NCBI RefSeq assembly: GCF_002075285.3
Contig: NZ_CP021983.2
Coordinates: 4,200,001 to 4,232,000 of the forward strand
From: Halomicronema hongdechloris C2206
GTDB taxonomy: Bacteria > Cyanobacteriota > Cyanobacteriia > Phormidesmidales > Phormidesmidaceae
Length of the DNA stretch: 32,000 bases
Direction: 5' to 3'
The notes under the pieces: generated by a model
What the model saw: only the letters and a program-made list of their open reading frames with translations
Told to the model about the DNA's origin: nothing
Databases searched by the model: none
Shown: one piece after another, positions 1 to 29,699 of the stretch
Position numbering within the stretch: position 1 is the first letter of the stretch
How the letters are laid out: every line of letters begins with the position of its first letter
Translations under genes and position numbers: made by a program

Positions 1-2172
1 ACCCACCTCAAGGGGGAGGCCCGCACCCTGCGCGCCGATGTGGCCGACACCATTGCCCTACGGCGACGTAAGGGCACCTTGGATGCGATCGCATGGTTGA
101 CCTACAACCTCAGCGGCTGGGGCGTCCACGGGGTGGAGCTACGGGAAAATCTGCTCTGGACCCAGCACCTAAACCACCAACGGCCCGATGCCGGCGGTGT
201 CCCCCCCTATAGCCTGCCTGGGGTCAGCCGCTTTACTCCCATTCGCGGCGGCACCGTACCGGTGCGGGATGCCGCCATGCTCAGCCTGGTCAACACCCCC
301 TTCGATCCTTTCGGCCACACGGTGGATGTAAAACCGCCCGGCCTCGACGCGGTGCGCTACAACCTGCCCAACCTGGCCATTTTCCTCTGGCGGCTGGCGG
401 CCTATCGGGTCACCGTGTCACCCCCCGTCATCCGGGACGTGATCGACAACAGCGCCGCCGGAACCGGAGCCAGCTTTATCCTGCGAGTGGATGTCCATCC
501 CCTGGGGCAGCCGCTGCGGCTGTTTAACACCAGCCGCTTCGACCCCAACCAGAGGCCACCGGTGGTATCGCAGTTGGATCAGACCCCTGGCCCCATCCCC
601 CCAGCCCGCTTGAACCAAGGCTCCGCCGCCGGGGTCCCTGAGGCCTATGTGCAGGTGGACACCTACGACCCAGCCAGCCTCAGCAATCCCGATCTAGACA
701 CCGTCGACCGCCTCGACATCGGTGCGGTGGGCCTGCAGCTGCATCTGCCCGAACCCGAGTTTACCAACCGCTCCTGGCCCCGCTCAGAGCCGCCGCCACC
801 GCCTGCCTGGACCCTGCGAGGAGATAATCTCTGCGCCTGGGAAACCGGCCTGGCTCGCCCCCTGCAGAATAACGAGATCGCCGTCGATCCGGTGATTGGC
901 CGCCTGCTGATCGGGGTGGAGACCGCCGCCGCGGCCGCCGCCCTGGAGACGGGATTGCTGCTGACCCACACCTATGGGGCGGTGGGACCAGTGGGGGCCC
1001 ACCCGCTGTCCCGCCAGCCGCTGCCGGACACCTGGCAAGGGGAGACGGTGGCGGTGCGTCCGGTGAATTTTCACAGTGACCCCAATGGCTTGCAGGCGGC
1101 CCTACATGATATCCAGACCGCCACCGCCCCCATCGTCATCGAGATTCGAGACAGCATGGTGCATGAGCTGGATTTAGGGGCCATTGCATCCCCCCTCGAC
1201 GAAGCCGGGGGCTTCAACCTGCGCCTCAACCGCAGCCTGATCATCCGGGCCGCCAGCGGTCAGCGCCCCCTGATTCGCCTCAGCCAACCGTTGCGATTTC
1301 GCCCCAGCCGAGTCTTCGATCCCGATCCCGAGGTGCAAACTCAGTTGGATGCGGTGATGGACCGCCTCACCGTGCGCCTAGAAGGACTCTATCTGACCCG
1401 AGCAGCGGGCTTCCCCGCCGGGGACCCCCTGATTGCCCGAGCCGCCCTGCACAGCCTGGAACTGGTGGACTGCATCCTGGATCCCGGTGGTTTCCAGCAA
1501 CTGGACGGCAGTCGTGCCCCCATCCGCCCAGCCTTAGAACTAGCCAATTTCTATGGCTTTCCCCCCGGCTCCGACCAGGAGGTCGCCTTCAACCAAACCC
1601 CCGAAATTCACCTGCAGCGCACCATCAGCGGCCCCTTAACCATCGACACTGACTACCGCCTCTTTCTCACCCACGCCCTGCTCGATGCCGGCAAGGGAGT
1701 GGGCGATGCCCCCGATGACAGCTTTGCCGTGGCCGGGCCGGGGTCCCTACCAGAGGGACGCTGGGGGCCGCCTACCGTCGTGAATGGCCTCACCGTTTTC
1801 GGCCGCATGCGGGTAGATGAGATTCGCGGCCAGGGAGGCATCTGGGTCCATGCCCTAGAGGTATTGCACAACCAAACCGGCTGCCTCAAGTTCAGCTATT
1901 TCTCTGGCCAGGGGGACCGATTGCCCCAGCACCATGGCTGTGTCACTGGCCCGGAGGCGCGGCTGCGCTTCATCAGTGAGATCTGCGGCCAACCCGCCTA
2001 CGGTCAACTGGCCCGCAGCAGCGACTTTCGCATTCGCGAACGCGGCCCCGGAGACGACGCCATGGGGGCCTTCGGATTTTTGCTAGAGGCCCATAAATGG
2101 CGAAATCTGCAGATTCGCTACCGCGAATTTATGCCCCTGGGCGTGAGCCCCCTATTAATTCCGGTGACCTGA
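1..2172 (+). CDS. Phage-tail/eCIS baseplate wedge protein, P2 gpI-like (Afp12 position), 5'-partial with a long C-terminal extension
   Basis: Frame 1 has no stop from nt 1 up to the GTG at 40 used by the ORF track, so the gene probably begins upstream of the window. Stop is TGA 2170-2172. The first visible residues (..TLRADVADTIALRRRKGTLDAIAWL..) resemble, from memory, the conserved R-x-KGT block of the Tail_P2_I family. The remaining ~680 aa has no motif I recognise. The next gene starts 10 nt later, with GAGGAG (2171-2176) overlapping this stop. Confidence 0.6.
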   Translation, partial: THLKGEARTLRADVADTIALRRRKGTLDAIAWLTYNLSGWGVHGVELRENLLWTQHLNHQRPDAGGVPPYSLPGVSRFTPIRGGTVPVRDAAMLSLVNTPFDPFGHTVDVKPPGLDAVRYNLPNLAIFLWRLAAYRVTVSPPVIRDVIDNSAAGTGASFILRVDVHPLGQPLRLFNTSRFDPNQRPPVVSQLDQTPGPIPPARLNQGSAAGVPEAYVQVDTYDPASLSNPDLDTVDRLDIGAVGLQLHLPEPEFTNRSWPRSEPPPPPAWTLRGDNLCAWETGLARPLQNNEIAVDPVIGRLLIGVETAAAAAALETGLLLTHTYGAVGPVGAHPLSRQPLPDTWQGETVAVRPVNFHSDPNGLQAALHDIQTATAPIVIEIRDSMVHELDLGAIASPLDEAGGFNLRLNRSLIIRAASGQRPLIRLSQPLRFRPSRVFDPDPEVQTQLDAVMDRLTVRLEGLYLTRAAGFPAGDPLIARAALHSLELVDCILDPGGFQQLDGSRAPIRPALELANFYGFPPGSDQEVAFNQTPEIHLQRTISGPLTIDTDYRLFLTHALLDAGKGVGDAPDDSFAVAGPGSLPEGRWGPPTVVNGLTVFGRMRVDEIRGQGGIWVHALEVLHNQTGCLKFSYFSGQGDRLPQHHGCVTGPEARLRFISEICGQPAYGQLARSSDFRIRERGPGDDAMGAFGFLLEAHKWRNLQIRYREFMPLGVSPLLIPVT

Positions 2173-2182
2173 GGAGACCACG

Positions 2183-2383
2183 ATGAAAGGCGACTTTTCC
2201 AACTGGTATTTTGACCCCAACGACAACTTCAGTGGCGTTCTAGAGCAACAGGGCCGGGTGCGTCTCGACCGCGATGGGCTGGCCCAGACTCAGATCACCA
2301 CCCACTGGCAAGACACCACTGGCCAAGCCGTCCTGGGGCCGGGGGGTGATGGCCATTCCCGCCAATGCCATCGACGGCTTTAA
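2183..2383 (+). CDS. Fragment 1/3: DUF6519-like N-terminus
   Basis: ATG at 2183 sits 7 nt after a GGAG. The N-terminus MKGDFSNWYFDPNDNFSGVLEQQGRVRLDRD matches, from memory, the very conserved MKGDFSR..fdp...Y.gVl.QQGRV.LD.D start of DUF6519 proteins. The frame ends 37 nt after the G6 run. Confidence 0.55.
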   Translation: MKGDFSNWYFDPNDNFSGVLEQQGRVRLDRDGLAQTQITTHWQDTTGQAVLGPGGDGHSRQCHRRL

Positions 2384-5030
2384 GGTCACCGCCGCCAGCG
2401 TCGACGCTGGCCAGGTGGTTCTGACCCTGCAGCCTGGGCACGGCTGGGCCGATGGGCGCCTGGTGCACCTCAATGGCAGTGACCCTGTCATGCGGCTGGC
2501 CACTTACCTAACCCCCCCGATTCAAACCCCAGGGGCCACCGTCGACAGCCTTGAGGTAGGGGTGCGCGACGCCGTGGTGCTAGACGTGTGGCGCGAGGCC
2601 CTGAACGGCTTTCAGCGACCCGACACTCTGATTGAACCGGCCCTGGGTGGCCCCGACACCAGCGAGCGGCTGCACACGGCCATGGCCCTGCGGCTCTACC
2701 GGCTCAGCCCGGGGGAAACCTGCTGCACCATCGCCACCGCCTTGCAAGATCCCCTGGCCAGCCAAGGCAAACTCACGGTCTCGCTGCAACCTACCGAGGT
2801 GATCGACGGCGACTGCCCGGTGGTGGCTGGTGGCGGCTACACCGGCTTCGAACATTTGCTCTACCGCATCGAAATTGCCCAGGTCGATACTGGCATCCCC
2901 AGCTTCAAATGGTCCCAATTCAATGGCGGCTTGGTGGGCCGGGGCCGGTTTAATGCCGCCACTCGGCGGGTGATGATTACCGCTAACCTGCAAGCCATCA
3001 GCACCGCCAGACTCGATCAGTTCTATTTAGAGGCCATCCAGTACGACCCCCTGTCACCGGCCACCCCGGGCCGGGGCCACTGGCGGGTCACCTATGGGGC
3101 TCAGGCCACCTTAAATAGCGATAACGAGCTGGAACTAGCCGATACACCGTTATTTGGCACCATTCCCAGCGGTGACAGCCCCGTTTTCTTCCGGCTGTGG
3201 AATGGTATTGAGCAGATCGGCGATTTTCTCGCCCCCGTGCCCGGCAACGAGCCGGTTGAACTCCTGGACGGCATTCGCCTGGTGTTTGAGGCTCCGGCCG
3301 CCGCCAACTACCGCCCTGGAGACTACTGGACCTTCCCGGTACGGGCGGGGGAGGTGGGCAACCCCGAAACCCTGATCGATGCCCAGCCCCCAGCAGGAAT
3401 TCACTACCAGCGGGTGCCCCTGGCGGTGCTCACCTGGAATGAGGCGCAAACCCTCAGCTTTGACAATGCCGACATCGAAGACTGCCGGGAGATTTTCAAC
3501 CCCCTGACTAACCAACGGGTATGCTGCACGTTCACCGTAGGCGATGGTCGCTCCAGCCACGGTGACTTTGATGCTATTGAGGAGGCCCTGCGTCATCTAC
3601 CGGCCTCGGGGGGCGAGATTTGCCTGTTACCGGGGCTGCACGAAACCAATGCCCAGCTTGACAATCGGCACCATATCAAGATCAAGGGCTGTGACAAGCA
3701 CACCCGGGTGGTGCCCCGCGACCGGGAAGCCCCGATCTTTCAGGTGGTCGACAGCCGGTGCATTGTTTTAGAGCATATGGATTTGGTCACCCTGGGCGGG
3801 GTAGCCATGGCCCTGCACGGCAGCGAAGCCGGTTCCCTGCAAGACATCGACATCGGCCACAATCGCGTTATCGCCTGCCAGCAAGCCATTGTGGTACAGC
3901 AGGGCCAGGGGATTCACATCCACCACAACCTGATCCGCATGCTCGACAAGGCCGGAGCCGGGGTGGCTATCTATCTCGCCGCCGACGATAGCCGCATCGA
4001 CGCCAACGACATTGGCGTCATCCCTGCCCCTAGCCTGCCCCCCGTCGATCAACCCGGGGAGGAGCCAGTGCCAGACCCCACCGATCCCTGTGCCCAGTTA
4101 GAGCTGATTTATGGCAATATCCCGGTTTTCACCGCCTATATCGCCCAGATCTGGGCCATTAGCCTGCTGTTTTTGCCCAGTAATCCCTTCAATGCCCTAG
4201 GGGGGATTCAAATCGCCGGTGGTTCGGAGCGGGTAGCCATTCTCGATAATCAGATTACTGGCGGAGCCGGTAATGGCATTGCCCTGGGCACCTCCCTGGC
4301 CGAGTTTCTGGCCGGCTTAGACCTAGAGGGCGACGCCACACCCCCCACCATCAACCATGATGGCCCCGAGCTCTGGGGGGGAGTACGCTTAGCCGGCAGC
4401 CCCCAAGCCAACCTGACTCTCCAGTTTGAGCCCAGTGATGGCACCCGACTCACCGCCCTAACAGACACCGCCGGCACCTTCTTGATCGAGGCCACCCCTG
4501 GCACTTACCAGGTGTCGGTGCTCTCGCCAGGCTATCAAATCGCCGCCATTACCCCCGAGAGTCGGGGCGAATTCGGCACCTTTTATCAGATTGAATTAGA
4601 GCGCTCATCCCTGGATCTGAGCGATCTGATTGCCTTTCTCTACGACCTGTCCATTCACCACAACACCATCTCGACTATGGGGCTTGCGGGCATTGGCCTG
4701 CCCACCATTGAGGTGCCTGACGACCTAGCTAGCAACAATCAGACACTCTCGCGGCTGCTGGGATTCTATGCCCAGGTGCTGCGGATCTTCGGCAACCCCG
4801 TCCTGGGGCTCGATATCACGGACAACCATATCTTCCAATGTTTTCAGAACCCCCTCACCCAGGCCCTGCGGGACCTCATCGGCCAGCGCGGCCTCGGGGG
4901 CATTTCCCTGGGGCTCTGTGCCGACGTGACCATTCACCGCAACCGCATCGAGAAAAATGGTGGCGTCTACACCAAACCCACCTGTGGCATCTGGATTACC
5001 TATGGCGAAGAGGTGGATATCACCCCATAA
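2349..5030 (+). CDS. Fragment 2/3: right-handed beta-helix repeats plus a CarboxypepD_reg-like beta-sandwich (fibre/spike-like)
   Basis: The ORF-track frame is 2274..5030, and the first ATG in it is 2349. Beta-helix-type repeats include IDIGHNRVIACQQAIVV, IHIHHNLI, RIDANDIGV, ILDNQITGGAGNGI, LSIHHNTI, LDITDNHIF and VTIHRNRIEKNGG. An inserted segment GTFLIEATPGTYQVSVLSPGYQ is typical of the carboxypeptidase-regulatory-like fold. Confidence 0.7.
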   Translation: MAIPANAIDGFKVTAASVDAGQVVLTLQPGHGWADGRLVHLNGSDPVMRLATYLTPPIQTPGATVDSLEVGVRDAVVLDVWREALNGFQRPDTLIEPALGGPDTSERLHTAMALRLYRLSPGETCCTIATALQDPLASQGKLTVSLQPTEVIDGDCPVVAGGGYTGFEHLLYRIEIAQVDTGIPSFKWSQFNGGLVGRGRFNAATRRVMITANLQAISTARLDQFYLEAIQYDPLSPATPGRGHWRVTYGAQATLNSDNELELADTPLFGTIPSGDSPVFFRLWNGIEQIGDFLAPVPGNEPVELLDGIRLVFEAPAAANYRPGDYWTFPVRAGEVGNPETLIDAQPPAGIHYQRVPLAVLTWNEAQTLSFDNADIEDCREIFNPLTNQRVCCTFTVGDGRSSHGDFDAIEEALRHLPASGGEICLLPGLHETNAQLDNRHHIKIKGCDKHTRVVPRDREAPIFQVVDSRCIVLEHMDLVTLGGVAMALHGSEAGSLQDIDIGHNRVIACQQAIVVQQGQGIHIHHNLIRMLDKAGAGVAIYLAADDSRIDANDIGVIPAPSLPPVDQPGEEPVPDPTDPCAQLELIYGNIPVFTAYIAQIWAISLLFLPSNPFNALGGIQIAGGSERVAILDNQITGGAGNGIALGTSLAEFLAGLDLEGDATPPTINHDGPELWGGVRLAGSPQANLTLQFEPSDGTRLTALTDTAGTFLIEATPGTYQVSVLSPGYQIAAITPESRGEFGTFYQIELERSSLDLSDLIAFLYDLSIHHNTISTMGLAGIGLPTIEVPDDLASNNQTLSRLLGFYAQVLRIFGNPVLGLDITDNHIFQCFQNPLTQALRDLIGQRGLGGISLGLCADVTIHRNRIEKNGGVYTKPTCGIWITYGEEVDITP

Positions 5031-5901
5031 CACCGTTGCCGACAATGCCCCCGTTACCGCAAATGCCACGGCAACGCTGCAACCCGGCCAGCGCAGCGGC
5101 ATTGCTGCGTTTGCCTCGGCCTTCTCAATTCTCAACGTTCTCTTGGCCGAAAACCGCGATCCCGCTGCCCTGGTGAACCGCCGCCCCGCCGCTCGCATTC
5201 AAGATAACAATGTCGATCAGCCGGCCGGTCGGGCCCTGACCCTGTTGGCTTTTGGGCCAGTCACCCTGCTCAACAACCAATTCAATAGTGAACGCTCTGG
5301 CCTCACGCCGCTGGAGCGCTATGTGGGCAGCGTGCTGGTGCTGAATCTGGGGGGCTTGAACCAAGCCGGCAGCTTCATCGGCAGCCCTGGTTCGAGCGCC
5401 AGTAATGATTTTAATAACATCGCCAGCCGCCGGCCCAACTTCCAGCGCGAGACTCTCTTTCGCCTGCCCAATGGCCTCACCCTCTTTAATAGTAATCAGA
5501 CTCGCCAGGGACTAGAGCATCAAAGCCTGCTGTCGCAACTGCTGTGGAGCGCCGATGATCTCGGCTTTGACGGCAACCAATCGGAAGCCCTGTCCCCCGG
5601 CTTTCCTTTAGGCGATAACATTGGGGCATTAATTAATACTGGCCTGCTGGCCGCCACCCTGCGAGCCAGCGATAGCCGCTTCAAAGAACCCCTGCGCTCT
5701 AGCCAATCCGCCTTCCATTTTTCGCTGTTCACCTTGAGTACCCTGATGAATACCACCACGCTGAATCAGGGCAGCCATTGCATGGTTGCCAGTAATCTGG
5801 CCCCAGGCCGCGATGCGATCGCAAGGGGTAACCAGGTGCTCGACACCACCTTCTGCCCCCGCTTCAACGACACCCAGGCCTTTGCCCCCATCGATGATTA
5901 A
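5026..5901 (+). CDS. Fragment 3/3: C-terminal part of the fibre-like protein
   Basis: The ORF-track frame is 4957..5901. Sense continuation begins at HNTVADNAP (nt 5026) directly after the C4 run. Stop is TAA 5899-5901. There is no independent SD or start signal. Confidence 0.55.
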   Translation, partial: HNTVADNAPVTANATATLQPGQRSGIAAFASAFSILNVLLAENRDPAALVNRRPAARIQDNNVDQPAGRALTLLAFGPVTLLNNQFNSERSGLTPLERYVGSVLVLNLGGLNQAGSFIGSPGSSASNDFNNIASRRPNFQRETLFRLPNGLTLFNSNQTRQGLEHQSLLSQLLWSADDLGFDGNQSEALSPGFPLGDNIGALINTGLLAATLRASDSRFKEPLRSSQSAFHFSLFTLSTLMNTTTLNQGSHCMVASNLAPGRDAIARGNQVLDTTFCPRFNDTQAFAPIDD

Positions 5902-5918
5902 TGCCGTATTCAGAATTC

Positions 5919-6053
5919 AAAACTCAAAACTCAAAACTCAAAACCCAAAACTCAAAACTCAAAACTCAAAACTCAAAACCCATTCCCATCCCCCATCACT
6001 CCATCACCCCATCACCCCATCACTCCATCTCCGCCCTCCGCCCTCCGTCCTCC
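5919..6053 (+). repeat. Composite short tandem repeat block: (AAAACTC/AAAACCC)x9, (CCATCACY)x5, (GCCCTCC/GTCCTCC)x3
   Basis: Counted unit by unit. Heptamers run 5919-5981, octamers 5993-6032 and heptamers 6033-6053. The block fills the gap between the TAA at 5899-5901 and the ATG at 6066. It resembles the STRR-type heptamer repeats of cyanobacteria. Confidence 0.95.
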
Positions 6054-6065
6054 GCAGAACCTGCC

Positions 6066-7469
6066 ATGTTTAACTCACCCCGCGCCAATGCCCGCCAAAG
6101 TGACCTGAGCCAACTCGGCCATGAGCTGCTACAGGCCTTAGCTGCCGCCGCCGATGGTCAGATGGAGGGGTTACAACAAACCCGTGACACCCAAGTGGCG
6201 ATGACCGCCCTACTGCAAACCGAAGCCCAGCGGTTACAGCACAAATATGGCCCTGACCACAGCCGGGTGCAGCAAATCAACACCACCCTGCAGCGCAACA
6301 CCGCCATCGTCAATGACCTGGCGGTGGAGCTGGAAATTGCCACTATTCGTCAGCCCGACGTCGATGAAAAATCAGCCTTGGTGCAGGGGCGAGTAGTGGA
6401 TCGACGCTACCGGGGCATGGCTGGCCTGGTAGTGTACTTGGGCAATGAGCAACGGCAACCGCTGCGGTTTTTGGGCACGGCCGAGACCGATGGCTCTGGG
6501 TACTACGCCCTGACCATTGCCCCGGAAACCCTGGCCAAACTGGCAGAAGCCGCCCCCGATGGGGTGTTTCTGGGGGTGTGTACCCCCCAGGGCAGAGTAG
6601 TCTACCAGCGCCCCGAGGCCATCTTCCCCCAGGGGGGCGATCGCCTCACCTTGGAAGTCGTGCTGCAGCGCGACGATCTCAGCCCCGTCGATGGCGGCAA
6701 ACCGGTGGAACCGCCTGCTGCCAAAGCTTGGGTAGTACGAGGTCAGGTGGTCGATGCCAACACCAGTGAGGCCATTGCCGGGGTCCAGGTCAGCGCCATT
6801 GACAATAACCGCCGCTTTGACGACAAACTGGGCTCCGCCATCACCGATGCCAAGGGAACCTTTCGCATCACCTACGACTTTCAAAGCCGCCATGATGCCC
6901 CGGAAGACCGCGGCCCCGATCTCTATGTCACCGTCATTGATGAGGCCGGGAACCAGCTGTTTTCGTCTCAGTCGGAGCTGCGGCCCAATGCCAGCCGCGA
7001 GGAGGAATTTAAAATTGCGATCGCAGCTTCAACCACCCCTGGTGCAACGGAGCTGCCCTTGAATGGCTCTGTCCTCTGGTTCGCCACTGGGTCCACCAAA
7101 TTCCGCCAAGACGACGACCGCCTGAATGGAGAACGCCTGCTCAAACTAGCCATCCGCCGGACCCAGCAATTTATTCGCCAGAACCCCAACGGCCAGATTG
7201 CCCTGCAAGGCTATGCCAGCAGCGAAGACGGGACCCCAGAAGAGGCGCTCTCCCTGGCAGAAAAACGGGCCGAGGTCGTGCAAGCGATGCTAGTTCAGGC
7301 CAATCTACCCGCCAATCAACTCTCCGTCGCTGCCCAAGGCATCGATGACAGCTACGCCGAGGTGTCACTCAACCAACGCGTCGACATTGTACTGTTGCCA
7401 GGACGTCTAGGACGCGATCGCATCGGCAACCGCCCGCGCGGCAATCGGTTCGATCCTAGCCGCTTTTGA
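6066..7469 (+). CDS. Coiled-coil / beta-sandwich (CarboxypepD_reg or transthyretin-like) protein with a C-terminal OmpA-family peptidoglycan-binding domain
   Basis: The start is set to ATG 6066 (MFNSPRANARQ..), because the ORF-track start at 5901 only translates the repeat block. Beta-sandwich-like segments include VQGRVVDRRYRGMAGLVVYLGN, VRGQVVDANTSEAIAGVQVSAIDN..KGTFRITY and DLYVTVIDEAGNQLF. The C-terminus, F.TGSTKF..(n)..IALQGYASSEDGTPEEALSLAEKRAEVVQAMLVQANLPANQLSVAAQG..NQRVDIVLLP, follows the OmpA_C pattern (GxxS/D..G....N..LS..RA..V...L.......G.G....NRRV.I). Confidence 0.8.
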   Translation: MFNSPRANARQSDLSQLGHELLQALAAAADGQMEGLQQTRDTQVAMTALLQTEAQRLQHKYGPDHSRVQQINTTLQRNTAIVNDLAVELEIATIRQPDVDEKSALVQGRVVDRRYRGMAGLVVYLGNEQRQPLRFLGTAETDGSGYYALTIAPETLAKLAEAAPDGVFLGVCTPQGRVVYQRPEAIFPQGGDRLTLEVVLQRDDLSPVDGGKPVEPPAAKAWVVRGQVVDANTSEAIAGVQVSAIDNNRRFDDKLGSAITDAKGTFRITYDFQSRHDAPEDRGPDLYVTVIDEAGNQLFSSQSELRPNASREEEFKIAIAASTTPGATELPLNGSVLWFATGSTKFRQDDDRLNGERLLKLAIRRTQQFIRQNPNGQIALQGYASSEDGTPEEALSLAEKRAEVVQAMLVQANLPANQLSVAAQGIDDSYAEVSLNQRVDIVLLPGRLGRDRIGNRPRGNRFDPSRF

Positions 7470-7478
7470 GAAAGTACC

Positions 7479-9323
7479 ATGGCCCATGCATTGGCGAAGC
7501 TATCAAACACGAAAGACTCGGCTCAAGGGCATCAGAAGCCAGCGCTAAAGGCCCGACAGGTCTCCTCCCCATCCACGGGTCTGCCCTTAATACAACCCAA
7601 AGTGGGGTGTGCTTGCGGCGGCGGCTGTCCTCGCTGTCAAGCAAAGAATACTATACAAACCAAACTTCAAATCAGCGACCCTGGGGATCAATACGAACGC
7701 GAAGCCGATCAAATTGCTCAGCAAGTGCTCCATAGCGAGTCTGAGAAATCTCCACAGAATTCTCAAGAACCTCCTCAATTTCATTCTGAAAAGTTGCCAC
7801 CTGAAGGAATACAAACAGCATATCGACAGGCTATGGAAGAGGAAGAAGATGAGGATATCCAACTTAAGCAACGAGAGATAAATGCACCAACAGCTAGTAC
7901 AAATCTTGCTGCATCTGTAACCGCTCAGAGTGGTCGACCATTATCGCCTGCTGAACGGGCATATTTTGAGCCGCGATTTGGGCAAAATTTCTCGAGTGTG
8001 CGTATTCATGACGAATCCCATGCCCACGCTGCGGCTAAGGCGATTCATGCCCGGGCTTTTACGTTAGGTAGCCACATTGCTTTTGGCTCAAGTGAATACC
8101 GACCAGAGAGCTTTGATAGTCGTCTACTCCTAGCCCATGAACTAGTTCATACACTACAGCAACGTTCTGGTATCCAACCTCAGTTGATTCAGCGACGACA
8201 AATCCAGGTTAGGGGACGTACCTTTGAAGTAGGGGATGCAAAAGTTGCTAATCGAGATGCTGAGAGAGATATTCTGGGGCAAGGCGTACTGTTCCCTGGA
8301 TCGGATCAGAGACACATTCTCGTAAGTGGTGATGATCGATTAGGGTATGAAGTCTCGCACACCGATCCGGAAGATCCGTTCCGCTGGTCTAAATTCAAAG
8401 ATATTGTTGATAATGGCAAAATCGATATCAAGGCAGTATCTTTGGCAGATACCTTTCCTACCTTGATAGTCCAAAATAGACAATCACGACAGCAAGACAT
8501 TTCTCTGATTTCCCTAGGGGGCAGTGGTATCACCTTAGTACGTGAGTCTTTACTCCGACAAATTTCGCCGAATGAACCGACTATCACAGCGAGTAATGAC
8601 CCCAATCGCGACAAAATTTTCTACGTGCCTCGGGGATCTGGGCGAGGTGCACTGTCCAGTAATTCTCTGGCCCATGAGTTATTTGGTCACTATTGGCTCG
8701 CACTGCAGGGAGTTCCTTTCTTGCATCCACCCTCACGGCAGGATCTGCTGAGGCAAATACAACAGGGTAGAAACATTTCAGGCGAGGCATTCCGCAATGC
8801 GGTTGGCAGGCATCAGCGCCTAGGCGTATTAACTGAAGCTCATGGAATTCGAGGTCCCTTTGGTCATGTCTTTGAGGGGACAGTACGTGACTACATCGAT
8901 CGGCTGGTAGGGTCAGAAACAGGACGGGTTGAATCTCCGACTCGTCGAGTGAGCAACGAGCACTTGATGGCCGAACTGCAAGCACTCTACGACGAGTTGC
9001 AAAATCCCGGGGGGTTGGTTCTACAGGCTGGTGGTCGCGGTGTAATATCGGCTGACGTGGCAAGACACTGGAGCTTTGTCGCCAATAGTTATGAGGTTCT
9101 AAGGCATATACCCGCTGGACCTCCCGGGAGTAGTTTCAGCGCGGGTATGCTTTCTGAGGGAGTTCGCGACCTAATTGTAGAGTGGTATCGGGACATACTT
9201 TCTGAGGACCAACAGCGCGCTTTTAGGAATATTTTGGGGGCCGCCGGCTCTCGCTTCCGAAGTGGCATGCCTCCCAACTTAGCTCGCGATGTTCTTGCCG
9301 AAATTAATCGACGTGAAAGGTGA
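7479..9323 (+). CDS. DUF4157 domain protein (HExxH) with an unassigned ~385-aa C-terminal domain; candidate eCIS-associated effector
   Basis: ATG is 9 nt after the previous stop. The N-terminus has the Cys-rich GCACGGGCPRCQ and DQYEREADQIAQQV. Residues ~153-228, RPLSPAERAYFEPRFGQNFSSVRIHDES..AFTLGSHIAFG....LLAHELVHTLQQ, are the classic DUF4157 signature (HELVH at nt 8136-8150). The C-terminal domain contains HELFGH (nt 8673-8690). Hand-counted GC of single 60-nt lines inside the gene is 35-58%, against 60-70% in the flanking genes. Confidence 0.85.
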   Translation: MAHALAKLSNTKDSAQGHQKPALKARQVSSPSTGLPLIQPKVGCACGGGCPRCQAKNTIQTKLQISDPGDQYEREADQIAQQVLHSESEKSPQNSQEPPQFHSEKLPPEGIQTAYRQAMEEEEDEDIQLKQREINAPTASTNLAASVTAQSGRPLSPAERAYFEPRFGQNFSSVRIHDESHAHAAAKAIHARAFTLGSHIAFGSSEYRPESFDSRLLLAHELVHTLQQRSGIQPQLIQRRQIQVRGRTFEVGDAKVANRDAERDILGQGVLFPGSDQRHILVSGDDRLGYEVSHTDPEDPFRWSKFKDIVDNGKIDIKAVSLADTFPTLIVQNRQSRQQDISLISLGGSGITLVRESLLRQISPNEPTITASNDPNRDKIFYVPRGSGRGALSSNSLAHELFGHYWLALQGVPFLHPPSRQDLLRQIQQGRNISGEAFRNAVGRHQRLGVLTEAHGIRGPFGHVFEGTVRDYIDRLVGSETGRVESPTRRVSNEHLMAELQALYDELQNPGGLVLQAGGRGVISADVARHWSFVANSYEVLRHIPAGPPGSSFSAGMLSEGVRDLIVEWYRDILSEDQQRAFRNILGAAGSRFRSGMPPNLARDVLAEINRRER

Positions 9324-9513
9324 TTTGCAGATTACTTGGACATGAACCAGAGTAAGCTTTCAGAGAGATGGTGATATATCTATTCAAGATTGCCCAATTC
9401 CTGAAAGGCCTCACATCAATACTCTAAATTATGGTTAAAAATATTGTTCTCAACTTTCCAGCAGCTTTCGTACCTCGCTAGCTGCAAAACTGCTGTCGGC
9501 TGATTTTGTCTGT

Positions 9514-10506
9514 TTATTCGTGATTGGGGAAGTGGCAGGCGGCCCAGTGGTTGGGATCTAGCGCTTGCAGCACTGGCATCTCTTGCTGACAGCGGTCTTC
9601 ACCTTTGGGGCAGCGGCCATAGAGGCGGCATACGCTGGGGTCGGGGTTAATCGGGCTGCGGGGTTCACCGGTTAGGGGAATCGGGTGGGGTTTAGCTTCG
9701 AAGCTGGGGATGGCGGAAATCAGGGCCTCGGTGTAGGGGTGGCGAGGGTGATCGAACACGGCTTCCACCGGACCAGCTTCAATGATTTTGCCCAGGTACA
9801 TAACCAGGATGCGATCGCACAACAACCGCACCACATTCAAATCATGGGAGACGAATAGATAGCTCATGCCCAGCCGCCGCTTCAGGTCCGCCAGCAGATG
9901 TAGAATCACCGCCTGCACCGAGACATCCAGTGCCGACGTTGGCTCATCCAGCACCAGCAGCTTGGGATTGAGGGCAATGGCGCGAGCGATGCCCACCCGT
10001 GCCTTCTGCCCCCCTGAGAGTTGGTGGGGAAAGCGGCTCAATAACTCCTGGGGCAGGCCTACCAGGTCTGCCAATTCGGCTGCCCGCTGCTGCAATTGCC
10101 CCTTGTCCTGCTGGTGGCCCAGCCGCCGAATCGGTTCTGTGATGGTGTCATAGGCGGTAAAGCGAGGATTGAGGCTGTCGGTGGGGTCTTGGAACACCAA
10201 CTGAATCCCGGCCCGGTAAGCGCTCTGAGGAAACTGCCGCACCGCCACCGTGCTGAGGATGATGTCCTCGAATCGGATTTCCCCGGCCGTGACATCCAGC
10301 AGGCGGGTAATCAGGCGAATCAACGTGGACTTGCCACAGCCCGACTCTCCCACCAGCCCCAGGCTTTCTCCTGGTTGAATGTCGAAGGACACGTGATCCA
10401 CTGCACGGAGATGGGTCTGCTTGCCCACGGGGAAGGTTTTGCAGAGATCGCGCACCTGTAACAGGGGAGTCGCGGGGGTTGGCGGGGGTTGGGTGAGTGG
10501 GGACAT
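9514..10506 (-). CDS. ABC transporter ATP-binding protein, oligopeptide/dipeptide (OppF/DppF) type
   Basis: Motifs present: Walker [10 protein letters not shown], signature LSGGQKARV, Walker [14 protein letters not shown]-loop FVSHDL, and the Opp/Dpp C-terminal region [12 protein letters not shown] plus a Cys-rich tail. The start is set to ATG 10506 (MSPLTQPP..), because the ORF-track start at 10569 runs through a repeat block. Confidence 0.9.
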
Positions 10507-10563
10507 AAGCTGGAGAGAGGTGGATGGGTAATGGGGTGTTGGGGGATGGGAATGAGTTTTGAA
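10507..10563 (-). repeat. C-rich (on minus strand) repeat-derived leader sharing cores with the blocks at 5919-6053 and 15586-15932
   Basis: The reverse complement reads TTCAAAACTCATTCCCATCCCCCAACACCCCATTACCCATCCACCTCTCTCC. The core AAAAC(T/C)CATTCCCATCCCCCA also occurs at 5975-5995. The core TTACCCATCCAC also occurs at 15729-15740 and 15860-15871. Confidence 0.7.
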
Positions 10564-10568
10564 TAACA

Positions 10569-10843
10569 AACTTTACCACCCAAGATCATTTTCAGGCGAA
10601 ACATGGTGGTTTCAGCAATCGAACGGCGATGGTAATGCGACTGTCGTTTCCACGCCCTGCGTCCGTGTTGGCGAATCGCCCGCAGGTTTTCATCGCGGGG
10701 ATGGGGGGCGCTTTGCAATTACCGTGCTGCCAAAATTTGGCAGTCTTCTGCGGCAGAATCCCGGCTTTGGCTTCCCACTCCTGCAGCGCCTCATAGCAGC
10801 GGCGTTTGTCGTAGGCACCATCGGCGGATACTTGCTCGTTAAC
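10569..10843 (-). pseudogene. IS5-family (IS903-group-like) transposase C-terminal remnant, frameshifted and truncated at both ends
   Basis: Minus-strand translation gives VNEQVSADGAYDKRRCYEALQEWEAKAGILPQKTAKFWQHGNCKAPP. After a frame change in the G6 run at 10703-10708 it continues HPRDENLRAIRQHGRRAWKRQSHYHRRSIAETTMFRLKMILGGKV. From memory this parallels the IS903 transposase tail (ADGAYD..., Y.RRSIAETAMYRVKQLFGG). There is a stop immediately upstream (10844-10846). The last ~35 aa and the whole N-terminal two thirds are absent. Confidence 0.75.
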
Positions 10844-15231: not shown

Positions 15232-15585
15232 CTCCCCTGCTCGATCGCCTCTGGCCTGCTGAGGCGTTTTGTCTGGCGCTGGAGACGGGTAGGAGAATGT
15301 TAACGATATGACCAGGGCGGCTTGTGGTGAGCGATGTCGAATCACTGCCTGGATTCTGATGAGGCTTGTTAGTCGATGGTGATGGACTTCGATAAGACTA
15401 CGCTTAATCGGGTAGCTCAGGGATCTCACCCGAGGGGATCTCGTTCCCCCTCGGACTCCTACGACCAGGGCGTTCCGCCGCCCTGGACCCCGCGGAAGGG
15501 CTTGTCGGTTAGTCGTCCAAGATCGCGTTGCATCGGTGAGGAGCCGGTTTTCTGCATTGGGCGCGGCAACCACGCCCCTACCCTG

Positions 15586-15932
15586 TCCCCTGTTCCCTTT
15601 ACCCACCTACTCGCCTACCCGCCTACCCATCCATGTCTCGTGGGTCCTTCTTTGGCCACACATTGCTTTCCCTGTTTCAAGCGGCAAGACCCACGCTACT
15701 CCCCATCACCCCATCACTCCATCACCCTTTACCCATCCACTCGTCACTCGTCACTTCCCCCCTTCCCGTCCTCCGCCCTCCACCCTCCGTTTTCCTTTTC
15801 CCCATCACCCCTAAGCCCTCCGGGCAGGCTCCGCCACCACCCCATCACTCCATCACCCTTTACCCATCCACTCGTCACTCGTCACTCGTCACTCCTCACT
15901 TCCCCCTTTCCCGTCCTCCGTTCTCCGTTTTG
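15586..15932 (+). repeat. Composite C-rich repeat region with a 47-nt perfect direct duplication
   Basis: CCCCATCACTCCATCACCCTTTACCCATCCACTCGTCACTCGTCACT occurs at 15709-15755 and again at 15840-15886. Both copies continue into TTCCCC..CCCGTCCTCCG..CTCCGTTTT, giving full copies of ~15701-15794 and ~15840-15931. A partial third copy (CCCTTTACCCACCTACTCG) is at ~15594-15612. The internal unit is the heptamer (CACTCGT)n. The block ends 3 nt before the ATG at 15935. Confidence 0.9.
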
Positions 15933-15934
15933 CC

Positions 15935-17278
15935 ATGAATCGCCTCTTAACTATCCTCTTGATCGGTCTCGCGTTTCTCCTGCTGGCACCGCCAGCGGAG
16001 GCCTTCTGTGGCTTCTATGTGGCTCAGGCCGACAGCAGTTTGTATAACCAGGCCTCTCAAGTTGCGATCGCACACCATCATCACCACACCACCCTGACCA
16101 TGGCCAATGACTACCAAGGGGATGTCTCAGAATTTGCCTTGGTGGTGCCAGTGCCGACGGTAATTGCACCAGAGCAGGTGCAGATTGCCGATCCTGCCAT
16201 CATGCAGCGGTTGGATAGCTTCAGTGCTCCCCGGTTGGTGTACTACCCCGAGACCATCGCCCCCTGCAGTGAGCTCCAACATTTACTGTGGCCTTACACC
16301 CTCGCCTCTGGCGGGATAGCCCAACTGGAAAGCCGACGCGACCAAGCCGCCTCAGCCTTGGGCGTGACGGTGGAATCGCGCTTTACCCTAGGAGAGTACG
16401 ACATTCTGGTGTTGAGTGCTGAAGCATCAGACGGGCTAGAGACCTGGCTGCGACAGAACGACTATCGCTTGCCTCAGGGAGTCAGTCAGGTATTAAAGCC
16501 CTACATTCGTCAGGGCATGAAGTTCTTCGTGGCCCGGGTCAATTTGGCTGAATTTGACCGCCTCGGCTACCAGATCCTGCGGCCGCTGCAAATTAACTAC
16601 GAGTCTCCCCGGTTCATGCTGCCCATTCGTCTGGGCATGGTGAATGCCGACGGTGAGCAGGATCTGATTGTTTACCTACTATCTTCCCGGGGACGGGCCG
16701 AGACCACTAACTACCGCCTGTTAGAGATTCCGACCGATGACACCCTGCCTGGCTTTGTGGCCGACGATTTTGGTGCTGTGTACCCGACCATCTTCCGGCA
16801 CGCCCATCAACGGGCTGGGGGCAACGTCGCCTTCCTCGAATATGCCTGGGACATGAGCTGGTGTGATCCTTGCGCCGCTGATCCCCTCAGCCGCGACGAG
16901 CTGGAGCAGGCTGGCGTCTCCTGGTTAGACCATCAAGGGGGCCCCCCCAATGTCTATCTCACCCGGCTGCATGTACGCTACCGTCGCGACACCTTCCCCG
17001 AAGATCTGGTGTTTCAAGAAACCGGCAATCGTCGCAACTTTCAGGGACGCTATGTGATCAAACGCCGCTCCGTCAGCGACACCGATGCCGGAGCATGCCT
17101 ACAGCAGACGCTGAGCCACCTGCGAAGTGACTGGCAGCGAACTCGGGAAGCCGATTCCACCTCGAATGACTTTCCCACCTTCCTGCGACATTATCTGCTG
17201 AATGAGGCCGGGTGGACGACGCCAATCGCTGGAGTGGCCGTGTCTATCCCAGTTTCGATGCCGACGCCGATCCGCTGA
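15935..17278 (+). CDS. DUF2330 domain protein (secreted/periplasmic), possibly continuing in the next ORF
   Basis: Signal peptide MNRLLTILLIGLAFLLLAPPAEA followed by FCGFYVAQADSSLYNQASQVAI...TLTMANDYQGDVSEFALVVPVP. I recognise this from memory as the DUF2330 N-terminal signature. Confidence 0.8.
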   Translation: MNRLLTILLIGLAFLLLAPPAEAFCGFYVAQADSSLYNQASQVAIAHHHHHTTLTMANDYQGDVSEFALVVPVPTVIAPEQVQIADPAIMQRLDSFSAPRLVYYPETIAPCSELQHLLWPYTLASGGIAQLESRRDQAASALGVTVESRFTLGEYDILVLSAEASDGLETWLRQNDYRLPQGVSQVLKPYIRQGMKFFVARVNLAEFDRLGYQILRPLQINYESPRFMLPIRLGMVNADGEQDLIVYLLSSRGRAETTNYRLLEIPTDDTLPGFVADDFGAVYPTIFRHAHQRAGGNVAFLEYAWDMSWCDPCAADPLSRDELEQAGVSWLDHQGGPPNVYLTRLHVRYRRDTFPEDLVFQETGNRRNFQGRYVIKRRSVSDTDAGACLQQTLSHLRSDWQRTREADSTSNDFPTFLRHYLLNEAGWTTPIAGVAVSIPVSMPTPIR

Positions 17279-17472: not shown

Positions 17473-17556
17473 GGAGTGAAGAGCTTGCCCTGAGCTTGCC
17501 GAAGGGTGAAGAGTGATTACTCGTTACTCGCCACTCCCCCACTCCCCCACTCCCCC
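17464..17556 (+). repeat. Short tandem repeats: (GAGGAGT)x2-3, GAGCTTGCC x2, (ACTCCCCC)x3
   Basis: Read directly: GAGGAGT at 17464-17470 and 17471-17477, and ACTCCCCC at 17533-17540, 17541-17548 and 17549-17556. The G-rich 5' arm and C-rich 3' arm are partly complementary (GGAGTGAGGAGTG versus CACTCCCCCACTCC). Confidence 0.85.
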
Positions 17557-17698: not shown

Positions 17699-19213
17699 TT
17701 GCATAGTCACTGGCTAATTCCCAGCAGCTTGGGTGCTATGAGTGCCCTGGTGGTGACTCTACCGGTCCAAGCAGCCCAGCTGCAATCCTGGTGGTTTGAT
17801 AGTAATACGAACCGGTTGAGCTTCCTCACCGATGTGGGGGTGCAACCCAGGGCCCAAATGATTTTCAACCCCACCCGCATTGTGGTGGATCTGCCTGGCA
17901 CTACTCTGGGACGCCCGACAGCCCATCAAACTTTCTCGGGAGCCGTGCGGGAGGTGCGGGTAGGCCAATTTGATCCTCAGACTGCCCGTCTTGTCATCGA
18001 GCTTGACCCTGGCTACAGCGTAGATCCTCAACAGGTGGAAATTCGAGGGATTCGGGCCAATCAATGGATCGTTCAATTACCCTCGCCTCAACCCCAAGCC
18101 AGGAGTAATCGTCCCAGTTCCCCACCGGTTCAAAATCAGATCACGGGCCAGACCGTAGAGGCGACGACCCGGTTAGAGAGCATCGTTACTACCCCCGATG
18201 GCTTCTTTTTGCGGACCCAGGGACCAGTCCCGGAGCTATCACTGCAGCGACGCGATCGCAAAGATGGCCCTCGTCAAATCACCATCGACTTGCTGGATAC
18301 CTCGATTTCAGAGCGGCTGCGCTCAGTGGGATTGCCGGAAAATCGCTACAGTATCCGCTCCTGGGAGGTCCAGCAGCTGGCATCATCACCGCCCCAAGCC
18401 AGAATCACCCTGACCCTGGATGACGCCAGTCCCGATTGGCGAGTGACCGCCAGCAACTTGGGAGGCATCATTGTCGTGCCCCCGGCTGGGGTGTCCATCA
18501 ACACGATTCCGGATCAGGCCCCGACAGTAGCAGCCAGCACCACGACCACCGAGCCGGCCCCCAGCGCAGCATCACAGTCACCGGCGGCAGTTCCCATCGT
18601 ACCCACGCCAGCTGCGGATGAGCCGCCGAGGCCGACCCCCAACGTCCAAGCTGCCACCGTGCCCAATGAACGGGTGGTGGTGGTCATCGATCCGGGCCAT
18701 GGGGGGCGTGATCCAGGGGCGGTGGGTATTGCTGGGTTACAGGAAAAGCAGGTGATTTTCCCGATCTCGCTGCGGGTGCGGGAGCTGCTGGAACAGCAAG
18801 GCGTCCAGGTGGTGATGACTCGCTATGATGATCGCACCCTGGAACTGCAAACCCGGGTGGATATTGCCGAGCGGGCCGATGCCGACCTGTTTGTCAGCAT
18901 CCATGCCAATGCCATTAATCTGAGTCGACCCGATGTCAATGGCATCGAGACCTACTACTTTTCAGCGGCGGGGCGACGGCTGGCCGAGGTGATGCACGCT
19001 AGTATGCTAAGTGCTTCCGGCATGAATGACCGTGGGGTCCGCCAAGCCCGGTTCTTTGTGCTGCGACGGACTTCTATGCCAGCCACCCTGTTGGAGGTGG
19101 GCTTTGTCACCGGTGCCCAAGATGCCCCCCGGCTATCGGATCCGGCCTGGCGGGAGCGGATGGCTGGCGCCATTGCCCAAGGAATTTTGCGCTATATTCA
19201 GCAGAATTTTTAA
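17699..19213 (+). CDS. amiC: N-acetylmuramoyl-L-alanine amidase with two N-terminal AMIN domains (AmiC type)
   Basis: C-terminal Amidase_3 motifs are VVVIDPGHGGRDPGA, FVSIHANA, ETYY and LLEVGFVT. The N-terminal QLQSWWFDSNTNRLSFLTD..VVDLPG and a second similar module match AMIN domains. The TTG start at 17699 is the only start in the open frame and sits ~11 nt after AAGGGGG. Confidence 0.9.
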   Translation: MHSHWLIPSSLGAMSALVVTLPVQAAQLQSWWFDSNTNRLSFLTDVGVQPRAQMIFNPTRIVVDLPGTTLGRPTAHQTFSGAVREVRVGQFDPQTARLVIELDPGYSVDPQQVEIRGIRANQWIVQLPSPQPQARSNRPSSPPVQNQITGQTVEATTRLESIVTTPDGFFLRTQGPVPELSLQRRDRKDGPRQITIDLLDTSISERLRSVGLPENRYSIRSWEVQQLASSPPQARITLTLDDASPDWRVTASNLGGIIVVPPAGVSINTIPDQAPTVAASTTTTEPAPSAASQSPAAVPIVPTPAADEPPRPTPNVQAATVPNERVVVVIDPGHGGRDPGAVGIAGLQEKQVIFPISLRVRELLEQQGVQVVMTRYDDRTLELQTRVDIAERADADLFVSIHANAINLSRPDVNGIETYYFSAAGRRLAEVMHASMLSASGMNDRGVRQARFFVLRRTSMPATLLEVGFVTGAQDAPRLSDPAWRERMAGAIAQGILRYIQQNF

Positions 19214-26619: not shown

Positions 26620-27293
26620 GGGAAGAGATTGTTAACTTGTTAGAACTTTGCTTACTAGAGAGTCCCGATATTCTGTAGTTTGATACTTAATCCAACTGCC
26701 TACTCAAGTTGGGCAAAGCCAAGGGAAATCCCCCTAGAGTAGCTGTCCGGTTTGAGTAGAGAGGGCGGTCATTAATGATGATGCCCCGCTGCATCTGGCC
26801 TGGGAAACCGCTGCAACGGGGCTAGCCCTCAATCTACGTCGAGAAGCTGTAGTCTATGGTAGCGCACAGATATACCTCCAAGCGGGCTGTCCCGTTTGGG
26901 TTATTTGTCTACAGCAGAGGGGCCATTGCTAGTCGATGGTCGCCCTTGATGCTAGTTCCGAACGATGGTGTTAGTTGGCATCGCCAAGGAGATCGCTACC
27001 CTAGGCTCAAGGATTCGAGAGCACCCATGGTCCTCTGGCTGTTTAGCCATTGCTGGCTGTGGGCGTTTTATCAATGCAGGGAAGCTATGTTTCCGGGACG
27101 GTCGGTTAATTTCCCCCTAGGTGCTAGGGCGGCTTACCCATCACGGTTGGTGATAGATACATAGCTTGTTCTATCTAGCTGTCTCGTGTCCAGCTATCTC
27201 GTTCTCATGCCGATACGGTGACTTACCTCGGTAAGCATCGTGCGGTTTTGCTTCCATCCACTCTGTTTTGTCAGTAGTAGAGAGGAGAGTCCC

Positions 27294-29588: not shown

Positions 29589-29699
29589 CCAGGCTCGATG
29601 TTATTGAGCTCGGGATCTTGAGAACTCGATGCTCAGAGCTAACCTGGTTCACTTCCAATGCAGATTTAAGCACTCAAACCTCAATCATCGATTTTGATC

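Follow-up and report, generated by a model that had tools for sequence, protein, structure and literature searches.

The distal end of a probable lineage II extracellular contractile injection system locus in a cyanobacterium, with a putative, separately encoded distal fibre module

The first 9,323 nucleotides (nt) of a 32,000-nt stretch of the Halomicronema hongdechloris C2206 genome (contig NZ_CP021983.2, positions 4,200,001 to 4,232,000; the whole stretch is hereafter called the window) carry, with a probability that we put at about 80% and on the strength of orthology, the distal end of an extracellular contractile injection system (eCIS) locus of lineage II type. The locus as such is one more lineage II eCIS with a fibre of the published eBAP5 class and a DUF4157 cargo; it is a new cyanobacterial member of a known system and fibre class, with a possibly dead fibre gene, and the copy as a whole may not be functional. 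The only new part of its layout is a putative split distal fibre module, the product of an OmpA-like gene, and it is this module with its swappable tips that has the first claim on follow-up, with the C-terminal domain of the cargo coming second. The features of the cluster are as follows, with open reading frames abbreviated as ORFs and AlphaFold2 models as AF2.

1 to 2172, + strand: baseplate adaptor of the Tail_P2_I family, C-terminal 723 codons (open frame; orthology)
2183 to 5901, + strand: DUF6519 (eBAP5) tail-fibre gene with CarboxypepD_reg and right-handed beta-helix (Pfam; colinear tblastn)
2183-2383, 2274-5030 and 4957-5901, + strand: ORF pieces of the fibre gene, broken by two +1 frameshifts
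2341 to 2346, + strand: first frameshift, a run of six G (five or fewer in relatives), frame 2 to frame 3
5023 to 5026, + strand: second frameshift, a run of four C, frame 3 to frame 1, then TAA at 5028-5030
5902 to 6065, no strand: spacer with three short tandem arrays
5917-5979: tandem array, TCAAAAC, 9 copies
5985-6029: tandem array, CCCATCAC, 5.8 copies
6029-6055: tandem array, CTCCGCC, 3.9 copies
6066 to 7469, + strand: putative distal fibre module (OmpA-like gene), 467 residues (Pfam, AF2, Foldseek, homology)
7479 to 9323, + strand: cargo or effector, 614 residues (Pfam; AF2 model)

Identity of the locus

Frame 1 is open from nt 1 to a stop at 2172, a stretch of 723 codons that runs off the window edge, and the next ATG lies 10 nt past that stop at 2183, with GGAG just 5′ of it. 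A similarly tight junction separates the stop at 7469 from ATG 7479, where a 614-codon ORF begins that ends at 9323. All genes of positions 1-9323 are on the + strand, and because the neighbouring gene (9514-10569, encoding an OppF-like ABC ATPase) is convergent, the cluster ends at 9323. An earlier note, made from the letters of the window, had described four co-directional genes with these two tight junctions and a first gene cut by the edge; strand order, junctions and truncation are all borne out by the ORFs, but the second “gene” is not one ORF but three pieces. A promoter and terminator scan of 5800-9700 yielded chance level only.

In a one-genome-per-species scan the adaptor found its best match in Nodosilinea nodulosa PCC 7104 (locus L001), where the gene at L001:9497-12187 encodes a protein 79% identical. 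Two metagenome contigs, L083 and L085, are much closer relatives than PCC 7104: L085 is 92.0% identical at the nucleotide level to window 1-5926 (92% over the adaptor), and L083 is 92.7% and 90.4% identical to parts of window 4729-10517. The adaptor has a full length of ~800 residues, judging by its 800-residue L085 orthologue. The fragment in the window has no Pfam or NCBIfam match, Tail_P2_I (PF09684) included, even at E≤10, because that domain lies almost wholly upstream of nt 1: it occupies residues 33-109 of the L085 orthologue, and the window starts at L085 residue 78. The full-length orthologues match Tail_P2_I at a borderline 23.0 bits (L001) and 21.0 bits (L085), with the cut-off at 20.6. 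Among the families that the earlier note had expected, profile searches of the four proteins thus recovered DUF6519, Beta_helix, CarboxypepD_reg, OmpA and DUF4157, but not Tail_P2_I on the window fragment. Nor is a gpI-like protein of more than 710 residues unusual, as had been suggested, since gpI-family ORFs of about 755-1,000 residues are found in nearly all of the 80 related loci.

These 80 loci were kept from 111 relatives returned by the same scan and span Cyanobacteria, Acidobacteriota, Gemmatimonadota, Verrucomicrobiota, Proteobacteria, Deinococcota, Chloroflexota, Planctomycetota and others. BLAST labelling of every ORF revealed a rigid order: AAA, u229 (~225 residues), u90, u371 (with weak Phage_GPD similarity), spike, PAAR, gp25, baseplate J (~830 residues), u862 (~870 residues) and gpI, followed directly by a DUF6519 ORF in 76 loci and, further downstream, by one to four DUF4157 ORFs in about 55. 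In PCC 7104, Pfam identifies AAA, Phage_base_V, DUF4280 (PAAR-like), Baseplate_J, Tail_P2_I and DUF6519, and the genes for the ATPase, spike, PAAR-like protein, gp25 homologue, Baseplate_J and Tail_P2_I all lie within 10 kb 5′ of the fibre, OmpA-like and DUF4157 genes; for gp25, the corresponding gene of locus L081 has a GPW_gp25 match. Loci L081 and L082 extend the picture further 5′, with Phage_sheath_1C, Phage_T4_gp19, two genes without assignment and Pvc16_N all placed 5′ of the ATPase. The same arrangement of sheath, tube, tube-adjacent gene and Pvc16_N upstream of the ATPase recurs in 24 of 24 further metagenome loci among the matches listed, which were found via ATPase homologues and each have at least 7 kb of upstream DNA. 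This sheath and tube evidence comes from relatives more distant than the 92%-identical contig L085.

The family-wide order would accordingly be read as sheath, tube, tube-like gene, Pvc16_N cap, AAA+ ATPase and three small or unassigned genes; then spike, PAAR-like protein, gp25, baseplate J, the ~870-residue baseplate protein and the Tail_P2_I adaptor; and finally the DUF6519 fibre, in some loci a distal fibre module, and between one and four DUF4157 cargo genes, with the window beginning inside the adaptor gene. The markers that set eCIS apart from phage tails and type VI secretion systems (T6SS), namely a Pvc16_N/DUF4255 cap, an AAA+ ATPase, DUF4157 and an absence of capsid genes, are all in place, the cap and ATPase by way of the relatives and DUF4157 in the window itself. 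Myophage tails do share Tail_P2_I, Baseplate_J, gp25, sheath and tube, so that the tail module of a prophage or an R-type tailocin might be considered. The cap, the ATPase and the DUF4157 cargo are eCIS markers, however, and the flanks of the loci inspected contain no capsid, terminase or lysis genes, holding an AMP-binding megasynthase fragment (L081) or ABC transporter and housekeeping genes (window), and we regard a phage origin of this kind as extremely improbable.

Set against the eCIS reading are the facts that sheath, tube and baseplate are known here from orthologues, that the clade is known from its genes, and that the fibre gene is frameshifted twice, so that this copy may not work. 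The agreement with published lineage II eCIS (Chen et al. 2019, dbeCIS, PMC6899500) covers the core homologues of Afp1/5, 2-4, 8, 9, 11, 15 and 16, the divergence or absence of Afp12/13/14, the lack of an Afp14-type tape measure and a subtype-specific gene order. That work distinguishes subtypes IIa-IId and reports that lineage II eCIS generally lack Afp14-type tape-measure genes (PMC6899500). The view of the earlier note that the cluster is the 3′ end of an Afp/PVC-like locus, with sheath, tube and baseplate core upstream of nt 1, therefore gains support from PCC 7104, L081, L082 and the 24 metagenome loci, while two of the oddities that it listed disappear: the AAA+ ATPase and cap, which do not follow the fibre, sit upstream in this class, and a missing tape-measure gene is the rule in lineage II.

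The fibre gene and its two frameshifts

DUF6519 is known as eBAP5, a baseplate-attachment domain present on 658 fibre genes in a recent catalogue of eCIS receptor-binding domains (Nat Commun 2026, PMC12923769). Fibres of this class are anchored on Tail_P2_I adaptors in loci largely without Afp12, and behind the eBAP5 head they have MG-type shaft domains and often, towards the C-terminus, beta-helix pectin-lyase folds (PMC12923769). The locus studied here is like that class in its DUF6519 N-terminus, its place 3′ of the Tail_P2_I gene, its MG/CarboxypepD_reg-type shaft, its beta-helix and its downstream DUF4157 genes. It differs in that the published class was linked mainly to Actinobacteriota, cyanobacteria being mentioned for eBAP2 and eBAP4 (PMC12923769), whereas the present locus and those related to it belong to cyanobacteria, acidobacteria, proteobacteria and other groups, and in that the fibre gene is frameshifted. 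A DUF6519-headed beta-helix giant in the fibre position is thus no anomaly, and the suggestion that the combination is not a described architecture does not hold for either the fibre class (PMC12923769) or the 3′ DUF4157 cargo (PMC8213781). The thylakoid-tied contractile injection system (tCIS) of Anabaena (PMC8894136) is another cyanobacterial system in which lineage-specific extensions on fibre-like proteins decide the site of attachment, but it belongs to the eBAP4 group (Cis19 crown), and tCIS-like systems have an Afp12 homologue (PMC12923769), whereas the present locus combines a DUF6519 head with a Tail_P2_I adaptor and has nothing that suggests membrane anchoring.

The assignment to eBAP5 rests on an N-terminal DUF6519 domain (PF20129) in a gene directly 3′ of the adaptor, 10 nt after its stop. 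The domain scores 32.2 bits (E 5.8e-8) on ORF 2183-2383 and 24.1 bits on 2274-5030, with a cut-off of 22.4, and 60.5 bits on the intact PCC 7104 fibre. Pfam also finds CarboxypepD_reg and Beta_helix (E 2.9e-9) on ORF 2274-5030, and neither Pfam nor NCBIfam has a match for ORF 4957-5901. That the three ORFs are pieces of one gene is evident from tblastn, in which the intact 1,235-residue PCC 7104 fibre (L001:12197-15904) is colinear with the window across three frames: residues 1-53 correspond to nt 2183-2341, residues 52 to ~945 to nt 2337 to ~5027, and the rest continues to nt 5883. The L085 fibre is likewise intact, at 1,238 residues. What the gene in the window lacks is an intact reading frame, being shifted twice by +1 relative to L001, L083 and L085. 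The extra G of run 2341-2346 is absent from L001 and L085, and the extra C of run 5023-5026 from L001, L083 and L085, L083 covering the second site only. Programmed frameshifting was rejected since both extra bases are absent from relatives, and phase variation is unlikely at runs of merely 6 and 4 bases.

Taken at face value, the sequence would leave the particle without its proximal fibre; the alternative is that both shifts are homopolymer errors of sequencing or assembly and that the organism itself has an intact gene. Each shift adds a single base to a G or C run, an error typical for long-read and some older platforms, and the rest of the gene is conserved, with 92% nucleotide identity to L085 and no other frame-breaking gap. 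Other genes of the window argue the opposite way, as none of them looks truncated (psaA, psaB, the genes for the PEP-utilising enzyme, HTTM protein and amidase, and the DUF2330 gene all match full-length models), and with 59 of the window's 366 G/C runs of at least 4 bases lying in the fibre gene, the chance that two random run errors would both land there is ~0.03, a figure that is suggestive only. We somewhat favour real decay of the fibre gene, while taking sequencing error as a serious alternative, a little short of even odds. In locus L082 (European Nucleotide Archive ERZ25039516, contig_76644) the baseplate genes are chopped into many short ORFs, resembling long-read metagenome indel errors, which shows that public assemblies of such loci commonly contain frameshift artefacts.

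The distal fibre module

The OmpA-like gene had been singled out earlier as a peptidoglycan-binding protein oddly placed between fibre and effector. The oddity is real, but the protein makes more sense as part of the fibre than as an envelope protein inserted there. Its most likely start is not 5901 but ATG 6066, which is called in L083, a contig 96% related, and conserved in L085, and 5902-6065 is a spacer of tandem arrays. On ORF 5901-7469, Pfam finds CarboxypepD_reg and OmpA (PF00691; 36.6 bits, cut-off 27.2), and the AF2 model of the module (pLDDT, the predicted local confidence score, 70.5) divides it into the following parts.

aa 8-93, nt 6087-6344, + strand: predicted helical hairpin
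aa 104-195, nt 6375-6650, + strand: predicted beta-sandwich 1
aa 222-319, nt 6729-7022, + strand: predicted beta-sandwich 2
aa 335-444, nt 7068-7397, + strand: predicted OmpA-C-like tip

The evidence that ties this gene to the fibre comes from the lengths of fibres across the related loci. Of the 80 loci, about 36 have a stand-alone homologue of the module between fibre and cargo, and in nearly all of these the fibre is ~1,120-1,320 residues long; the stand-alone gene is missing from loci with fibres of ~1,500-1,700 residues (mostly Proteobacteria, plus Trueperaceae, Longimicrobiaceae and Planctomycetales). In at least 15 loci, residues ~40-250 of the 522-residue ORF 5901-7469, which are about residues 1-195 of the 467-residue protein from ATG 6066, match long-fibre residues ~1,190-1,490 (E down to 2e-19, 31-41% identity), and the whole length of the short 1,235-residue fibre can be aligned with long-fibre residues 1 to ~1,220-1,300. 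By these alignments the relation between short fibre plus module and long fibre is one of colinear gene fission or fusion, and since the N-terminal half of the OmpA-like protein matches the segment right after the part equivalent to the short fibre, the gene is most likely a detached distal fibre module.

A phmmer search with residues 1-200 of the module against 1.84 billion cluster representatives returned 604 proteins at E≤1e-3, of which 289 reach E≤1e-10. Among the 150 matches listed, nearly all are separate proteins, 150-500 residues long, in which the match lies at the N-terminus; one has 1,399 residues, combines DUF6519 with Beta_helix and is matched at 1227-1389. The conserved part of the family is the helical hairpin with a CarboxypepD_reg/transthyretin-like beta-sandwich, often followed by a second sandwich, and minimal versions of ~200 residues consist of the hairpin and one sandwich only. 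What follows varies: among 149 representatives the tips are PASTA (14), HHH_5 (12), PKD (7), OmpA (1) and assorted Ig-like domains, and many have nothing past the sandwiches. The OmpA tip is limited to the Nodosilinea / Phormidium tenue group, in 11 clusters. Fused long fibres too end in CarboxypepD_reg plus HHH_5, and HHH_5 stands at the distal end of DUF6519 fibres or modules in loci L025, L077, L030, L033, L076 and L078. The supplementary domain tables of the fibre catalogue also contain long fibres with CarboxypepD_reg plus HHH_5, or with PASTA, at the C-terminus, although its main text describes no separately encoded distal module and mentions OmpA, PASTA and peptidoglycan 0 times (PMC12923769). 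The same tables hold an eCIS Baseplate_J protein fused to an OmpA domain (gene 2523269829 of the IMG database), which indicates that OmpA-type domains have been joined to eCIS baseplate or fibre parts more than once.

In Foldseek comparisons the tip resembles the C-terminal domains of Pal and OmpA, with target-normalised TM-scores of 0.7-0.8, an rmsd of 2.5-3.5 Å and 20-26% identity. In OmpA-C-like domains a conserved Asp and Arg bind the carboxylate of diaminopimelate (DAP). The tip shares with Pal/OmpA domains the fold, a Pfam OmpA match above cut-off and the Arg of LSxxRA (EKRA aligned with ERRA of Escherichia coli Pal), and differs from them in being joined to a phage-fibre-type module, in having no signal peptide or lipobox, and in carrying Ser at the DAP-binding Asp of Pal (GYASSEDG versus GHAD-ERG). 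The module as a whole has neither a signal peptide nor a transmembrane segment (maximum hydropathy 0.93 over 19 residues). Foldseek of the module against viral models gave generic beta-sandwich matches only, with low TM-scores to baseplate and fibre proteins, a weak form of support.

A working model can be built on these observations, with solved eCIS as the analogue. The C-terminal part of the adaptor would hold the DUF6519 (eBAP5) head of a trimeric fibre whose shaft includes the beta-helix; the fibre here would be bipartite, its distal segment, which elsewhere makes up the C-terminal ~250-450 residues of the same polypeptide, being supplied by gene 6066-7469; and the lineage-specific tip, OmpA-C-like and of peptidoglycan-binding type, would set what the particle sticks to. 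Taken further, and here we are doubtful ourselves, the module may represent a widespread and undescribed eCIS accessory family (at least 289 sequence clusters at 50% identity). It would form a detachable distal fibre segment whose interchangeable tips, often of a peptidoglycan-recognition type (PASTA in about 9% of the representatives, OmpA-C-like in the Nodosilinea group), would aim particles at exposed bacterial cell wall. Were this true, there would be a class of injection particle with a two-gene modular fibre directed, for instance, against Gram-positive, damaged or lysing cells.

HhH domains are normally DNA-binding. Tips of this type therefore misfit a simple story of surface receptors, and along with them several other points count against the model: the exchange of Asp for Ser makes peptidoglycan binding by the tip uncertain, and fission or fusion ties the module to the fibre but not to attachment in the mature particle, since a former intramolecular chaperone would leave the same pattern. 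Nor does any pattern link peptidoglycan-binding tips to peptidoglycan-directed cargo, PG_binding_1 being found only in a PCC 7104 cargo, and the cargos beside PASTA- or HhH-tipped modules having Aspzincin_M35 or no match.

The chaperone idea can be stated on its own terms, with the OmpA-like gene encoding not a structural tip but a fibre assembly chaperone (of the Tfa/gp38 kind, or an S74-type intramolecular one) that would aid trimerisation of the beta-helix fibre and then leave, or stay as an adhesin. The position of the gene directly downstream of the fibre gene suits this role, as do its fusion to the fibre C-terminus in other lineages, which recalls some intramolecular chaperones, and the existence of the minimal hairpin-and-sandwich versions. 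By contrast, variable C-terminal domains of adhesin type (PASTA, PKD, Ig-like, OmpA) are what would be expected of an exposed tip, and the protein does not resemble Peptidase_S74 or any known Tfa family, so that we hold a chaperone to be rather unlikely. T2-type gp38 is chaperone and adhesin at once, and the chaperone and tip readings are compatible, not exclusive.

The T6SS uses OmpA-C-like cell-wall anchor domains, and such domains are classic anchors to the cell wall in general. It could be imagined on that basis that the module fastens the machine to the producer's own peptidoglycan, in the manner of the TagL/TssL OmpA-like extensions of the T6SS or of the extensions that tie the Anabaena tCIS to thylakoids, and that no free extracellular particle exists; cyanobacterial contractile injection systems held by modified fibre and baseplate proteins are indeed documented (PMC8894136). 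With neither signal peptide nor transmembrane segment, however, the protein could not reach the producer's periplasm before lysis, and the OmpA tip occurs in one small cyanobacterial group while other family members have different tips or none, which means that peptidoglycan anchoring is not the general function of the family. We judge such anchoring to be improbable, and more so than a chaperone role.

With the module read as a detached distal fibre segment, the fibre class has one-gene and two-gene versions, the second gene bearing swappable tips. This split offers a natural cut point for re-targeting engineered eCIS, it implies that fibre catalogues counting the DUF6519 gene alone miss part of the receptor-binding apparatus, and the recurrent PASTA and OmpA tips lead to a testable prediction about targets.

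Cargo, repeats and flanking genes

DUF4157 is found at the N-terminus of toxins encoded 3′ in eCIS operons (Geller et al. 2021, PMC8213781). In AlgoCIS it has been shown experimentally that cargo is built from a disordered loading sequence at the N-terminus, DUF4157 as an optional part and a C-terminus that varies, and that loading requires the N-terminal region (bioRxiv 10.64898/2026.05.27.728243). This organisation recurs in the product of the last gene in the present cluster, in that a disordered N-terminus, a DUF4157 domain with HExxH and a variable C-terminus are all found. PF13699 (eCIS_core, formerly DUF4157) matches at E 3.2e-26, and the AF2 model, from a 42-sequence alignment, has a pLDDT of 80.4. 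Its parts are these.

aa 1 to ~150: N-terminal region, mostly low-confidence or disordered (pLDDT <50 over much of 1-136)
nt 7608-7637, + strand: CACGGGCPRC motif
aa 154-231, nt 7938-8171, + strand: DUF4157/eCIS_core
aa 220-224, nt 8136-8150, + strand: HELVH
aa 240-614, nt 8196-9320, + strand: C-terminal domain, fold without known match (pLDDT ~95)
nt 8673-8690, + strand: invariant HELFGH

The cargo body has 49.3% GC, versus 60-65% in the structural genes. Nucleotide homology to L085 stops at window 7727, that is at codon 83, and a different cargo lies beyond. That cargo (L085:11498-14845) is a 1,115-residue protein without a recognisable C-terminal domain that has the same ~80-residue leader; the PCC 7104 cargos are a DUF4157 plus PG_binding_1 protein (L001:17560-19386) and the product of a second DUF4157 gene (L001:21020-22183). 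The N-terminal motifs CACGGxCPxC and E-R/Q-EAD are common to these three other cargos of L085 and PCC 7104, which differ in their C-terminal domains. Cargo cassettes are thus swapped behind a conserved leader, as expected for eCIS effectors.

Cgo1 and Cgo2 of AlgoCIS (Algoriphagus machipongonensis) and the DUF4157 toxins (PMC8213781) thus resemble the present protein in their disordered N-terminus, DUF4157 HExxH and variable C-terminus, and AlgoCIS resembles it further in that an N-terminal region is common to the cargos of one system. The difference is that the cargo here is a predicted one and that its C-terminal domain belongs to a rare family with no match in Pfam or NCBIfam and no neighbour in the PDB (best Foldseek E 0.32). 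The domain forms 44 clusters among 5.8 billion proteins, almost always after DUF4157, and is also present, full length and at 44% identity, in an eCIS locus of Rhodovulum euryhalinum. Among the residues that never vary in it are H399, E400, G403, H404 and H416, and in the model this H-E-x-x-x-H...H arrangement makes it a candidate toxin, possibly a metal-dependent hydrolase. The 614-residue protein would then be the payload, its disordered N-terminus serving as a system-specific loading signal, DUF4157 as an accessory domain and its C-terminal domain as the seat of toxic activity. At ~375 residues, with a confidently predicted fold and no solved relative, that domain is a candidate new toxin family.

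The window holds several patches of clustered 7-8-nt tandem arrays of the cyanobacterial short tandemly repeated repetitive (STRR) type, at 5902-6065, 10472-10560, 15600-15900 and 17531-17556, the pattern at 10472-10560 being related to the first and on the other strand. Fibre stop and module are 164 nt apart in the window, as against ~25 nt in L083 and ~85 nt in L085, so that the arrays grow and shrink from strain to strain, and translation of the repeat patches explains the odd N-terminal extensions of ORFs 5901-7469 and 9514-10569. Synteny with L083 (L083:4653-10501) stops at window 10517, inside a repeat patch. Beyond the break, L083 has genes for a second ABC ATPase, for OppC and OppB and for a substrate-binding protein, where the window (to 11800) has a 205-residue ORF without assignment, a BD-FAE esterase and a zinc alcohol dehydrogenase. 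This leaves the OppF-like ATPase of the window an orphan, which points to deletion or rearrangement at the repeats.

The 223-codon ORF at 15376-16047 has no family match and lies in a region of strong strand asymmetry (AT skew -0.30, GC skew -0.26) that also holds three short tandem arrays; its last 113 nt overlap the beginning of the DUF2330 gene (15935-17278). Further along are a cell-wall amidase with AMIN and Amidase_3 domains (AmiC-like; 17699-19213), an HTTM / vitamin-K-carboxylase-like protein on the - strand (20995-22476), an apparently intact insertion sequence-type DDE transposase gene (DDE_Tnp_1 plus DUF772; 22642-23688), a PEP-utilising enzyme (23996-26386) and psaA-psaB (27240-31928), all but the transposase noted as full-length model matches. 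The psaA-psaB, amidase, HTTM and PEP-utilising genes confirm that the window is part of a cyanobacterial chromosome.

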